Below the pieces are notes generated by a model. That model was not told the origin of the DNA and searched no databases. It saw only the letters and a list, made by a program, of their open reading frames with translations. The position numbers and the translations under genes are program-made. From assembly GCA_012455605.1 (NCBI GenBank), contig GCA_012455605.1_3618.1: DNA of 64,000 nt; one strand, 5' to 3'. This document shows positions 1,252 through 4,483 of this stretch, one piece after another (position 1 is the first letter of the stretch; the number at the start of each line of letters is the position of its first letter). This DNA is from a phage.

Positions 1252-1671
1252 ATGAACATTAAATCTAATAATCCGGCATATAGCTTTGATAACGCTTTTT
1301 GTCACGGCCCGGCGGCGAAAGGATTCGAAATCGATGGTAAACTAATTATTGTCAATGTTGACGGGGAAGAGGTTGCAGTATATCCGGTGGCAGACGTAAA
1401 AAGCCGTTTACAATGCCGCATTGATGTTACCGCCTATCAGCTTGATCCGGTCCGCATAGTTGCCCTGGTCCTGGAAGAAGAAATTAAAGCCATGCACCAT
1501 AGCAACAGGTTTATTGGTGACGCCCAGGATAATATGAAGGTATGCCGCCATAAAGTTAATGAAGTGCTTAAAGAATATGGCTTTAAAGATCTGATGATCA
1601 AACGTGAGGAAAAATTCCGCTACCGTAACGACCTGGCAAATCGAATCTATGAAATATACGAATCATTATAA
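1252..1671 (+). CDS. hypothetical protein (139 aa)
   Basis: ORF with RBS aagaggtaaaaacaccATG, preceded by consensus promoter and followed by terminator. Confidence 0.55.
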   Translation: MNIKSNNPAYSFDNAFCHGPAAKGFEIDGKLIIVNVDGEEVAVYPVADVKSRLQCRIDVTAYQLDPVRIVALVLEEEIKAMHHSNRFIGDAQDNMKVCRHKVNEVLKEYGFKDLMIKREEKFRYRNDLANRIYEIYESL

Positions 1672-1689
1672 TTTCTTAACTAAACTATC

Positions 1690-1717
1690 AGGGGCTTTAA
1701 AAGGCCCCTTTCTTTTT
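1690..1717 (+). terminator. rho-independent terminator
   Basis: GGGGC...GCCCC hairpin followed by TTTCTTTTT. Confidence 0.6.
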
Positions 1718-2324
1718 GTCTGTATTTCTCCTACCACAAACGGCCCAGCCTGGCAAGTGGAATAATTGACTAGCCATCAATCCCACACACTGTACAAACA
1801 TACATGTAAAATAACTATTGCATAATTTTTCATTGTGTGGTAGCAGGGCCATTTTTACCCGTTTTCTCTCTCAAAATTGCACGTAATGCCGCTATTGCAC
1901 AAAATTTAACCTGATGCACATCTTCAATATCTTGTCAACAACTAAAAATCTTTATAAGTCATACACTTACACACTCACAAAAGCGTGTTCTACGTGAAAA
2001 ATCGAGTATAACTATAGCCGCCAGATCTCAGAATTTACGTACGCTCACCATTCTATAGTCTGCTAAGTATTTATTCCAACCATAGAATAACGGAATAGTC
2101 AATACCTGCATAAAATAATTATTCGTGTAAACTGCATAACATAAATCAGCTTATGTGTCAACATTCTTGGTAAACAGTCCGAAATTGTAATGGTAAGTTA
2201 TAATAAACAGAGAAATCTTTAGTCGTCTAATGTTTACTGTACATAACTATACTGACTGGAATCATTAGATGACTAAGAGAAAGATAAGAAATCATTAACA
2301 ATGCAATTGTTTTATTCGTAACAA

Positions 2325-2700
2325 TAAGGCAACTATGCAAACGAATGGCATGGCGCGACGGAGTCGCGACATAATATAAAAGCAGTAACCATCACCCCCG
2401 TGATAGTTTGTCTGCAAACTATTAATCAGATCATAGTTGCCTTGTATTTAGTTAATCATGACATAACAAGCAAGGCAACTATAGATCTTCTAATAGTTGC
2501 CCTGCTTTTATATTATGTCATCTATTGTAAACAAGTTAATTATTGTCATGCAAACGAATGTCATGGCTTATCATTTTTGAGTAAACAATCTATGCGTGAA
2601 CAGTTAGCTATGTAAACTATTAGACATGTAAACTATTGAGAATGTAAACAGTAAAGGGAGTGAATAGTGATAGCGTAAACAGTCAGGCATGTCAATTATG
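2325..2700. repeat. iteron-like cluster of short direct and inverted repeats
   Basis: AAGGCAACTAT in 4 copies (2 forward, 2 inverted: about 2326, 2433, 2471, 2493); TGCAAACGAATG(G/T)CATGG twice (about 2335 and 2548); TGTAAAC(T/A) words at about 2525, 2580, 2609, 2626, 2642, 2672; many ATGTCA words 2687-2750. Confidence 0.5.
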
Positions 2701-3255
2701 TTCAGTGTCACCATTATGTCATATTGTGTCACAGTATGCCCAGTATGTCAGACAAGTTTTTCTCCTCTTTGTCAAGTGCTGCATGAAAAATTTACAATCT
2801 GGTATGGTAGCATTTTTGCGGCCCTGTTTACATTCAGTTGTGTATGTATAAGCCTTGTTGTGTGGGCGTTTAGACGTCTAGACGGTTGGAAGTCTACAGG
2901 TCAATATCTAATCTATTGGTTGCTAACTATATCCCACACAAATAGTAAGAAATATAATTGTTATGTGTGTAAACTGTAACTCATGTTATCAATCCCTGTA
3001 TGGATCGCCAGTGGTGCGCATAATGGGTATTATGTTAAATTGCCCGTAATGATAACAGTTCTCACAATGATAGGTATTCTCATTCAATCCCACAAGATAG
3101 GTTGCAAATGTTGTGCCACTGTGTGAACGGCCTCACCTATTAATTTGCCACACTGCCCCGATATTTGAGAATTGTTATAAGAATGAGAATGATTCCCATT
3201 TCGTCCGCCTGGCAGCACTCCAGTCGCTACCGCTCATAACAGGGCAGAACTAGAC

Positions 3256-3794
3256 CCTCTTCAGATATTTCTGGCTGACTCTTCAGGTCTGTGTGGGAAA
3301 AGCCAACCTCTCCGGCGGGAAGGGGGGGTCAATTAAAAAATTTACGGGGTATATGAAGCGCTCTTCAGGTAAGGCATGTATTATGGGATGAAACCCTCTT
3401 CAGGCAATGATATTTGTGGGTGTGATATTTGCTGGAAAGCCAGATATGACGGGACTCCCGGCGGGGCAGGGGTAGTACAGGAAGGGAAAATATGGGGATG
3501 TAGTTGGGGAAATTGATCAGACAGGTGGAGTATAGTATATGTTACAAGTATGTTAAATATGGATGGTGAATATCTATAGGATTTGTGTGTAAAATCAAAG
3601 ACTTAAGTGGTGTTGTGGTATTTTCTATAAATAATTCAAGTTTAATAGGGAATATTTGTCAGAAAGGTAGGTTCAGGTTATTTAAAGTTGTATTTCAGAT
3701 GCATGTTTACAGAAGCAGGTAACCCCCCTCCCCCTTCGGCTACCATTCACCTTTTCCTCTAACTGGTACTTAAACACTTATTCAGACTCTTCAG
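3256..3794. repeat. dispersed CTCTTCAG(G) 9-mer repeats with G-rich CGGCGGG-A-GGGG motifs
   Basis: CTCTTCAG(G) at about 3256, 3289, 3361, 3394, 3786 and again at 4435; CTCCGGCGGGAAGGGGGGG at about 3310 and CTCCCGGCGGGGCAGGGG at about 3466; no ORF over 60 aa in 2980-3930. Confidence 0.45.
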
Positions 3795-4146
3795 GTTATC
3801 ACCCATATATCATATGGCAGTGACTGGTGTCCTCAGGCCCCTCTTTCGTCACCCGTCCGCTTCGCCATGCTAATGCCATAGCCAGTGGTTCGGTTGTTCA
3901 CCCTGTTCACTCAGGTGTATCTCCATACCCCTTCAAACCGAAGAGAACAGAAAACCCGAATTACTCGGTAAAAGAAAAGAGAAGAACTTAATTTTATCAG
4001 GATAGGCAAGAATGTCAAGGCATGACTGCTCACTAAACAAGCAAACAGTCATGTGTGGGAGGTAAGTGATTGTGGTGGTAGGAAATTTAGTTGAAAGATG
4101 TGTTATAGGTGCTCCCAGCACTTTTAGCCGGGCAGCTAGTTGTGTG

Positions 4147-4362
4147 TCAGTCCAGCGGTTCATCCCCTACTTCACTGAAATCGATGTTCATGGTCTCCTC
4201 CCAACCATCGATCTCAGCACAAGAGTGGAGATCTTTAGGACTTACTCCCAAAGCCTCAGCAACAGCGTCTATATTTAACACCTCTGGCAGGTATGATTCA
4301 TCGAATTCAAGGTAAATCAGGCCACGAGTGTTGTCAGCTCCACCAAATATTTCTATCTTCAT
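4147..4362 (-). CDS. hypothetical acidic protein (71 aa)
   Basis: ORF; last gene of the minus-strand block. Confidence 0.4.
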   Translation of the reverse strand: MKIEIFGGADNTRGLIYLEFDESYLPEVLNIDAVAEALGVSPKDLHSCAEIDGWEETMNIDFSEVGDEPLD

Positions 4363-4483
4363 AAAATCTCCTCTGGAAATGAGAGTGTGAACTGGGTTTT
4401 ATACGTTCCAATACGTTGGAATTATGCACGTTTGCCTCTTCAGGCCATGCTTTAGCATGAGGAACCTGTGTGGGCTCGGTGCT

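Follow-up and report, generated by a model that had tools for sequence, protein, structure and literature searches.

A non-coding interval of a Vequintavirus coliphage genome as the probable genome-end region, with a dif-like site in its terminal repeat

Phages of the T7/T3 type package linear genomes whose ends are made at specific sequences, and the repeat of a few hundred base pairs at these fixed ends appears once per junction in assemblies. T7 reportedly carries the short-repeat arrays SRL and SRR directly outside its repeat and a promoter, phiOR, that reads into it; we know of no Xer site in the T7 repeat. Phage P1, which is temperate and packages its DNA by the headful mechanism, has the recombination site loxP in its terminal redundancy, and two direct copies on the injected linear DNA give a circle by Cre-loxP cyclization, independently of RecA. 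Sites for the host recombinases XerC and XerD include dif at the bacterial chromosome terminus; cer (ColE1) and psi (pSC101) on plasmids, which need about 180 bp of accessory sequence bound by PepA together with ArgR or ArcA and are independent of FtsK; and the dif-like sites of integrative mobile elements exploiting Xer (IMEX), among them CTXphi, VGJphi, TLCphi, gokushoviruses and the gonococcal genetic island (GGI). Here we describe positions 1700–4140 of a 64,000-nt stretch of phage DNA (contig GCA_012455605.1_3618.1; below, the window is this whole stretch and the interval is 1700–4140). The window, judged from its sequence, is part of the genome of a Vequintavirus (rV5-like) coliphage. 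We think it likely that the interval is the cis-acting end region, or concatemer junction, of this genome, consisting of a direct terminal repeat (DTR) with a dif-like site inside it and its flanking arms, for which we infer T7-type ends and Xer recombination.

Window positions 1500–4400 match 122 phage records at 86–96% identity, nearly all of them Escherichia Vequintavirus, which are myoviruses of about 137 kb. The rV5 counterpart of the interval lies unannotated between ORF163 and ORF164; the rV5 paper draws a grey box labelled "non-coding", notes a change of skew at 104.4–105.5 kb, and states that bidirectional terminators were expected in this box and none was found there. In the window, the last plus-strand gene stops at 1671 and the first minus-strand gene at 4147, giving a convergent junction of gene blocks, and the flanking genes have no assigned function. 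An earlier note, made from the letters of the window alone, had called the interval poor in open reading frames (ORFs), and this holds. We aligned the window with 12 relatives, from the gene for an 87-aa protein (844–1107) to that for a 71-aa protein (4147–4362). In this 13-genome alignment no 180-nt segment of the interval shows a three-base periodicity of substitutions (P 0.16–1.0), and both flanking genes are periodic (P = 2e-9 and 9e-7). A protein-coding reading was dropped, as there is no periodicity in any frame or candidate ORF, and the annotated mini-ORFs are inconsistent between records. The collinear, conserved coding genes in related phages that the note had named as grounds for abandoning its claim do not appear: the records of the relatives are empty here or carry small ORFs that disagree with one another. 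The interval does not drift freely and is non-coding DNA under constraint. Its bulk is 90–100% identical among the relatives, the blocks 2330–2500 and 3744–4093 are better conserved than the neighbouring genes, and the indel-rich stretches, 2521–2745 and 3225–3256, each abut one boundary of the repeat from outside. The features are collected in Table 1.

Table 1. Features of the predicted genome-end region, in window coordinates.
Feature	Position	Strand	Remarks
Intrinsic terminator closing the plus-strand gene block	1690–1709	+	8-bp GC-rich stem followed by a T run; annotated at the homologous place in Murica, HdK5 and Alma
Distal left arm, non-coding, C-rich on the plus strand	1700–2325		GC skew −0.25 to −0.30; about 30% of columns variable; no codon periodicity
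Imperfect palindrome, about 150 bp	2368–2519		Outer arms 2368–2385/2502–2519 complementary at 18/18 positions; inner stem carries GGCAACTAT copies
Hypervariable short-repeat array	2521–2745	+	G(T)RAAC units recurring every 16 bp; TGTCA half-sites spaced by about 10 bp follow and reach the left cut
Left cut motif TGTCA^GAC	2746–2753	+	Cut placed between 2750 and 2751 by record starts and repeat ends; conserved across genera
Direct terminal repeat (DTR), 459 bp, single assembled copy	2751–3209		Gap-free 93.5% match to the Gotham repeat
Sigma-70-like promoter TTGTCA-N18-TACAAT	2769–2798	+	Just inside the left end, reads inward; putative function
dif-like XerC/XerD site	3013–3040	+	GGTGCGCATAA (XerC arm)/TGGGTA/TTATGTTAAAT (XerD arm); 28 bp, centre of the DTR
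GAGAAT/ATTCTC palindromic boxes	3045, 3063, 3179, 3185 (3045–3203)		Weak match to the Fur box, 13/19
Right cut motif TGCCA^GGC	3205–3212	−	Cut placed between 3209 and 3210 by record starts and homologous termini of relatives
Second indel hot spot	3225–3256		Directly outside the DTR; insertions of up to 50 columns in 6/12 aligned relatives
Four CTCTTCAG(G) units	3257–3404	+	Often followed by TGTGGG; more copies at 3787 and 4436
Stretch of strong G-over-C excess	3300–3700	+	GC skew +0.36 to +0.63
KOPS octamer GGGAAGGG	3317–3324	+	Inside the first G-rich motif of the earlier note
KOPS octamer GGGCAGGG	3464–3471	+	Inside the second G-rich motif of the earlier note
KOPS octamer GGGGAGGG	3726–3733	−	Points at the XerD arm, 686 bp away
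Ultra-conserved non-coding block, genus-specific	3744–4093		95.7–99.1% identity, median about 98.6% (118 records)
Near-consensus sigma-70 promoter TTGACA-N16-TAAAAT with TG (extended −10)	3991–4018	−	11/12 matches; in the invariant block; reads towards the DTR; predicted

The evidence for genome ends comes from the records of close relatives. The Gotham record annotates a repeat_region at 1–459 and at 136567–137025, the two copies being identical, and the HdK5 record has an exact 459-bp repeat at both ends; HdK5 and EdH4 were reported to carry terminal redundancies that are short, at 458 bp (Korf et al. 2019, PMC6563267). The 459 bp of HdK5 and Gotham map without a gap to 2751–3209 of the window, so that by homology the same sequence, within the 100–1000 bp of T7-type repeats, would be present at both ends. 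Furthermore, the Aya and ECP2303 records begin exactly at 2750|2751, the point at which the HdK5 and Gotham repeats end, and the HdK5, Gotham and bov10K2 records begin exactly at 3209|3210, with ECP2309 and bov22_2 beginning at about the same place (BLAST coordinates only). The start of the bov10K2 record may have been set by homology, since this phage was first published as circularly permuted. Read 5′ to 3′ into the repeat, the left edge is TGTCA^GACAAG on the top strand and the right edge is TGCCA^GGCGGAC on the bottom strand, an inverted TGYYA^RRC pair.

This pair is found well beyond the genus. We assembled a cross-genus set anchored on an invariant sequence in the repeat, comprising 22 IMG/VR stretches together with A5-4, KPP-1 and PBES 02 from GenBank; two of the anchored loci are phiTE and PVP-SE1 (100% identity). 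Nearly every lineage has TGYYA^RRC on the top strand, 200–289 bp left of the anchor, and the motif again, inverted, on the bottom strand, 196–241 bp right of it. The pair coincides with reported or recorded termini in four lineages, namely Vequintavirus, Mydovirus KPP-1, Certrevirus PBES 02 and one IMG genome. For KPP-1, the motifs predict a repeat of 274 + 240 = 514 bp, equal to the published 514-bp DTR, which had been obtained from doubled coverage and from PhageTerm. The PhageTerm termini of PBES 02, 200 and 642, fall to the base on TTGCCT^GGC and, on the bottom strand, TGCCA^GGC, and the IMG genome has an exact 519-bp terminal repeat with both ends on the motifs. The left and right motifs also co-vary, with CTA^ at both edges in most genera and YCA^G at both in Vequintavirus, which fits a single nuclease acting in inverted orientation. 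A conserved and co-varying motif pair of this kind argues for sequence-specific cleavage at both repeat boundaries, with a predicted chemistry and polarity of the nicks. KPP-1 and A5-4 directly show the convergent, ORF-poor architecture with the repeat in the middle, and in the loci that are long enough to test, the anchor lies within a gap of at least 1.2 kb without an ORF of at least 80 aa.

The likeness to T7 and T3 thus includes a short repeat at fixed ends, ends made at specific sequences (PhageTerm places KPP-1 and PBES 02 in the short DTR, or T7, type), and short-repeat arrays directly outside the repeat with a promoter reading into it; the predicted promoter at 3991–4018, directed towards the repeat, is reminiscent of phiOR. 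There are also differences, since the present phage is a 137-kb myovirus without a phage RNA polymerase, the gene blocks on either side both have their transcription directed towards the ends, and about 1 kb of non-coding DNA lies on each side. The earlier note had offered an origin of replication, a packaging or injection-control region, or a genome terminus as readings of the interval, and the terminus or packaging reading is strongly supported, because the 459-bp DTR of the relatives maps to 2751–3209 and its edges are conserved cut motifs. First-step transfer of the T5 type involves a repeat of about 10 kb with pre-early genes, and the repeat here is 459 bp and gene-free.

At the centre of the repeat is a 28-bp sequence that is nearly identical to the host dif site. 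Both of its 11-bp arms are those of E. coli dif, GGTGCGCATAA/TGTATA/TTATGTTAAAT, and the only difference is in two central bases. The MG1655 chromosome has GGTGCGCATAATGTATATTATGTTAAAT beside hipA, and the same sequence is tabulated as the dif of E. coli and Y. pestis, in which a central region of 6 bp separates the XerC and XerD arms of 11 bp each (PMC2731167); Xer sites in general have a central region of 6–8 bp between 11-bp arms. Among 19 Vequintavirus sequences the arms are invariant and only central position 2 varies; bacterial dif, too, varies most at this position (PMC2731167). All sampled Vequintavirinae lineages have a dif-like site, and in each of them it lies between the cut motifs. 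A comparison of the genera shows an invariant XerD arm, a XerC arm of the form (A/G)GTGCG(C/T)ATAA with two variable positions, and a lineage-specific central hexamer (TGGGTA, CGTGTA, CGTGTT, GGTGTA, GTTGTA), which is the host TGTATA in no genus. The flanks cannot be aligned between genera, while the 27-mer of the anchor is essentially invariant. This is the conservation pattern of a functional Xer site, with the XerD arm most conserved and the variation concentrated in the centre. Since the site lies between the two cut motifs, every virion DNA would have two copies in direct orientation, and HdK5 has two such copies, at 170 and 139,039, one per repeat.

The 27-mer was also considered as a sigma-70, late or extended −10 promoter, and this was rejected by inspection because the hexamers do not fit and there is no conserved −35 element. 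When one genome per bacterial species was scanned, the dif-like pattern was found in Pseudomonas, Pantoea, Dechloromonas, Azospira and others with unrelated flanks, the positions in the first three being chromosomal and intergenic; the context in the one locus examined consists of ordinary chromosomal genes. A tRNA-derived attachment site at these bacterial matches was rejected, as no tRNAs and no Rfam family were found at the site. A broader dif pattern matches more than 120 IMG/VR contigs, mostly of 4–40 kb, the range of sizes known for Xer-exploiting elements, and the large contigs among these matches are mostly of Vequintavirinae size (120–155 kb). One contig of 154,976 bp has a dif-like site with a different central region 277 nt from the contig end, which suggests that there are further lineages with dif in a terminal repeat.

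What might activate recombination at this site? The sequence GGGNAGGG is KOPS, the FtsK-orienting polar sequence, which is the loading site of FtsK and is read by the FtsK gamma domain, the same domain that activates XerD. Three of the 11 KOPS in the window are found within 420 bp (3317–3733). Over all loci, the density of KOPS is 0.62/kb within 1 kb of the site vs 0.096/kb elsewhere, and 21 of the 25 KOPS near the site are on the XerD side (P = 9e-4, for lineages that are not independent). Furthermore, six G, one A and one N can be arranged in 56 ways, and of these GGGNAGGG is the most frequent both in the window (11 occurrences, the mean being 4.9) and in the complete HdK5 genome (19 vs 9). 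The two G-rich motifs of the earlier note, CCGGCGGG, are present at 3312 and 3458, and it was not recognized there that they contain KOPS. This and the dif-like site are the two features that the note missed and that turn out to be the most important.

Comparison with the known recombination systems shows what is shared and what is particular to this phage. As in P1, a recombination site lies in the terminal redundancy, and two direct copies on the injected linear DNA could give a circle. However, P1 encodes its own recombinase, whereas none is annotated here and the site is that of host XerCD; and loxP is present twice in only a fraction of P1 virions, whereas here every virion would carry two sites. 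Like cer and psi, this is an extrachromosomal XerCD site with dif-like arms and with flanking DNA on the XerC side, here 262 bp of conserved DNA (2751–3012), and its central region is unlike dif, a property that restricts the reaction of the plasmid sites to plasmid-by-plasmid. No ARG box or comparable accessory signature was recognized, however: inspection by eye gave no convincing match to an ARG box in 2751–3012 or to an ArcA site, and PepA has no usable consensus. Instead, KOPS, a hallmark of FtsK dependence, is present. IMEX likewise have phage-borne dif-like sites used by host XerCD, as is predicted here, but they are small (4–57 kb), integrate at host dif and are found as prophages, whereas the present case is a large virulent myovirus whose site is duplicated by the repeat. 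Finally, the region shares with the terminus of a bacterial chromosome a 28-bp site of 11-6-11 organization with host-identical arms, KOPS enriched beside it and convergent transcription units, although the KOPS around the phage site are not uniformly convergent and the virion genome is linear.

We propose the following sequence of events. The terminase or an associated nuclease would nick the two motifs on opposite strands, as in T7-type end formation, and the 3′ ends would then be extended through the repeat to give each packaged genome a full copy. After injection, host XerCD would recombine the two direct dif-like sites, by analogy with Cre-loxP in P1, leaving a circle that retains a single repeat; FtsK that has loaded at the adjacent KOPS would activate XerD. 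The same site could also reduce replicated multimers to monomers, and the phage-specific central hexamer would keep the reaction phage-by-phage and disfavour crossover with host dif. The mechanism is consistent with three negative results: the annotated HdK5 genes include neither an integrase nor a recombinase, 5,426 complete E. coli genomes gave no copy of the region, and a search of Escherichia phage records gave no FtsK-gamma homologue. These features suggest that a lytic phage may borrow host XerCD and FtsK to circularize or resolve its genome. The terminase gene is not within the window; in HdK5 it is at about 90 kb.

An extension of this proposal, which we put forward tentatively as a possibility, is that the whole subfamily Vequintavirinae keeps a catalytically competent host dif in its terminal repeat and uses XerCD-FtsK, without a recombinase of its own, both to circularize and to resolve its genomes. 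The genome would then resemble a miniature chromosome, with gene blocks and KOPS running towards a dif-bearing terminus that is at the same time the packaging cut site, and phiTE and PVP-SE1, published as permuted, would have ends of the same structure. Earlier publications describe the non-coding box (2013) and the short DTR (2017, 2019, 2023); a search of the open-access literature gave no paper in which the DTR is located in the box, the cut motifs are defined, or dif, Xer or KOPS is mentioned for these phages. Short terminal repeats and Xer-exploiting elements are each well known; of a dif site within the terminal repeat of a strictly lytic 137-kb phage we found no description. If functional, the site would explain how linear virion DNA becomes a replicating form without a phage recombinase, and virulent tailed phages would join the clients of XerCD and FtsK. 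It would also predict a host dependency on xerC, xerD and ftsK's C-terminal domain, which bears on phage therapy, in which rV5-like phages are in wide use. In addition, the TGYYA^RRC pair around dif would be an exact rule for the true ends of about 120 deposited genomes with arbitrary starts, and the region would be a defined cis element for engineering or packaging assays.

Several points weigh against the proposal. The ends of this particular phage are assigned by homology, and Xer recombination at the phage site is predicted from sequence alone. Circular permutation has been reported for rV5, bov10K2 (by PhageTerm) and BpE1AUH, and phiTE was found to be permuted by Bal31 digestion, yet the same end motifs are present in it. 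A 459-bp repeat could recombine homologously without any Xer site. The compared loci are related, so the counts are not independent. The orientation of KOPS differs between genera: two of the three in the interval point away from the site, and Certrevirus and Septuagintavirus have minus-strand KOPS 170–190 bp away that point at the XerD arm. The genome-wide polarity of KOPS in HdK5, where 14 of 19 run towards the ends, was rejected as proof of FtsK use, since it is inseparable from gene orientation. XerCD at chromosomal dif needs septum-bound FtsK, and phage DNA may be out of its reach. An FtsK-gamma-like activator was searched for in Escherichia phage records and not found.

Some observations touch on these points. 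The complete end signature, two cut motifs and dif, is present in PVP-SE1 and phiTE, for both of which a terminally redundant, circularly permuted genome has been published. In PBES 02, which belongs to the same genus as phiTE, the end signature falls on fixed termini mapped from reads, in conflict with the phiTE report. An FtsK gamma-domain homologue is present in 375 other phage records (Vibrio, Mycobacterium, Pseudomonas, Gordonia and others), many of which call it a recombination-associated protein, and such homologues may be a separate route for phages to engage Xer. Several GenBank records, those of pangalan, nimi, UPEC06 and inoa, give the name 'DNA translocase FtsK' to the 87-aa gene of the plus strand (844–1107). 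We rejected this protein as an FtsK-gamma-like Xer activator, because it has no similarity to FtsK gamma and no Pfam domain, and its matches are close homologues only. An ORF of the same length, 264 nt, lies 1.2–1.5 kb to the left of the dif-like site in at least seven loci and in several other genera, matched by length alone.

The repeat words that had drawn attention to the interval are all present, and most of these families lie outside the DTR. The inverted pairs are AAGGCAACTAT at 2326 (+), 2433 (−) and 2472 (+) and GGCAACTAT at 2493 (−); the 18-bp direct repeat TGCAAACGAATG[GT]CATGG is at 2336 and 2549; TGTAAAC occurs in eight copies between 2126 and 3705, three of them with a 16-bp period (2611, 2627, 2643); and the 9-mer CTCTTCAG occurs at 3257, 3279, 3361, 3396, 3787 and 4436, on the plus strand throughout. 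A similar density of the words elsewhere in the genome, which the earlier note gave as a result that would count against it, is not seen, as they are 15–20 times denser here than in the remaining 61 kb (binomial P 2e-7 to 2e-3). Thus, the interval has eight of the 17 TGTAAAC copies in the window (0.74 expected, binomial P = 2e-7), six of the 13 copies of CTCTTCAG (P = 9e-6) and four of the six copies of GGCAACTAT (P = 5e-5). The copies elsewhere in the window are inside genes.

These repeats might be taken for an iteron-type replication origin, with an initiator bound to the TGTAAAC/TGTCA repeats and melting of the palindrome or of an AT-rich segment. Tandem short repeats at regular spacing, a large palindrome with extreme folding energy and non-coding DNA under purifying selection would all fit such an origin. 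However, the array ranges from 97 to 307 nt, with 0–9 GTAAAC-type units among 13 viable isolates and none in V18, and is therefore dispensable. Its 16-bp period leaves the units out of helical phase, and no DnaA box (at most one mismatch) is found in the region vs 36 in the window. There is a single IHF core, the GC content does not fall below 23% over 60 nt, which is no marked AT-rich element, and no initiator-like gene is adjacent. Moreover, a terminus rather than an origin is expected where transcription units converge. We therefore regard an iteron-type origin, the first of the readings in the earlier note, as unsupported and unlikely; the data are compatible with an origin at another place in the arms, such as one with priming from the promoter at 4018–3991.

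The conserved blocks could also encode one or more regulatory or anti-defence RNAs, like the pseudo-ToxI of phiTE. The near-consensus promoter in the invariant block, the precedent in this related phage and the strong predicted structure at 2310–2530 are in keeping with a non-coding RNA locus. A search of Rfam 15 gave no match within 1700–4140 at E ≤ 1, however, and the block 3715–4140 folds no better than shuffled sequence (RNA z-scores −1.4 and +0.2). The element with the strong structure is a palindrome in the DNA and scores alike on the two strands, with fold z-scores of −9.6 on the plus and −8.6 on the minus strand. A link to the phiTE escape locus itself was rejected, because pseudo-ToxI is at 106.7 kb vs 50 kb for the dif region in that genome. 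An RNA locus is, on balance, improbable.

If the motifs instead marked the single initiating cut of a headful pac region, virion DNA would be permuted and the DTR of the records would be a convention of assembly or annotation. Permutation has been published not only for rV5, bov10K2 and BpE1AUH but also for PVP-SE1 and phiTE, in the last case with Bal31 data and a sub-molar fragment. However, independent records have two fixed boundaries, not one. In PBES 02 these boundaries agree with the termini derived from reads on both strands and in KPP-1 with the doubled coverage, and both carry the same motif, inverted and co-varying, which makes a headful pac region quite improbable. We likewise give little credence to a decoy, in which phage sites and KOPS would titrate XerCD and FtsK, or recruit the FtsK motor, and disturb resolution and division of the host. 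Hundreds of copies of the site would build up during replication, and KOPS, as FtsK loading sites, are over-represented genome-wide; but a decoy would need neither a location in the repeat nor a lineage-specific central region, and both arms and the 6-bp spacing are kept exactly, as a catalytically competent site requires. Very improbable is an IMEX-like lifestyle with integration at host dif and a hidden lysogenic or carrier state: although all known phage-borne dif-like sites (CTXphi, VGJphi, TLCphi, gokushoviruses) serve integration and a whole Vequintavirus genome and phage-length contigs occur among E. coli records, the region is absent from the 5,426 complete E. coli genomes, the central hexamer is never that of the host, the phages are described as strictly lytic, and a site in the repeat, twice per virion, fits an intramolecular reaction. 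The records in question are CP057073.1 in PLSDB, a 137,565-bp 'non-mobilizable plasmid' of E. coli from cattle faeces that is a complete Vequintavirus genome, and several E. coli assemblies with phage-length contigs (about 135–139 kb) encoding the 87-aa protein; they could reflect a carrier state or contamination.

The flanking arms of the proposed genome-end region, with the palindrome, the variable array, the CTCTTCAGG units and the conserved promoter block, are accessory or unassigned. The palindrome overlaps a segment (2330–2500) with only 8% of columns variable, and rV5 and phita32 have a 33-nt insertion exactly at its apex. Each of the other genera has a perfect inverted repeat of 18–24 nt with arms 61–188 nt apart, on the XerC, or left-cut, side and 195–430 bp outside the repeat; the sequence of the arms drifts between genera and their complementarity stays full. 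A hairpin primer for duplication of the repeat has been proposed for T7. The palindrome may be such a primer, a back-to-back pair of terminators, or paired protein-binding sites. Mydovirus and Seunavirus have kept the TGTCAAG and AAATTTACAA elements of the left-end promoter region, and the CTCTTCAGG units recur in the right arm or the DTR of A5-4 and KPP-1-type phages. Positions 3944–3993 are invariant in the 13 genomes, and in the same 118 records that show the high identity of the ultra-conserved block, the adjacent 350 coding bases are only 86.7–97.1% identical.

The GC skew is −0.25 to −0.30 in 1600–2100 and +0.36 to +0.63 in 3300–3700. Transcripts entering either arm from the adjoining gene block would be C-rich and G-poor, as is required for Rho-dependent termination. 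At 3660–3720, about 60 nt of the window differ from all 12 aligned relatives; this is a replaced segment with deletions of 15 and 6 nt, where the relatives have CTATCCACTTTGTGT. Fur boxes in the window were rejected, since the GAGAAT-N-ATTCTC palindromes, at 13/19, are no better than background. Near-consensus Fur boxes, related to these palindromes, occur only in Certrevirus, beside its dif-like site, with 18/19 and 17/19 matches to GATAATGATAATCATTATC (at 2527–2550 of the phiTE stretch, and in two further loci at −23 from the site). Two IMG/VR contigs of 261,806 and 43,922 bp, unrelated to Vequintavirinae, have a dif-like site with central TGTGTA at a distance of about 20 nt from perfect DnaA boxes in tandem, TGTGGATAA; about 90 nt downstream there is an inverted, rearranged copy. 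Lastly, 19 GenBank records (MG0656xx) titled 'Campylobacter phage', with C. jejuni as host, are 88–96% identical to this coliphage region, and their host label looks doubtful.

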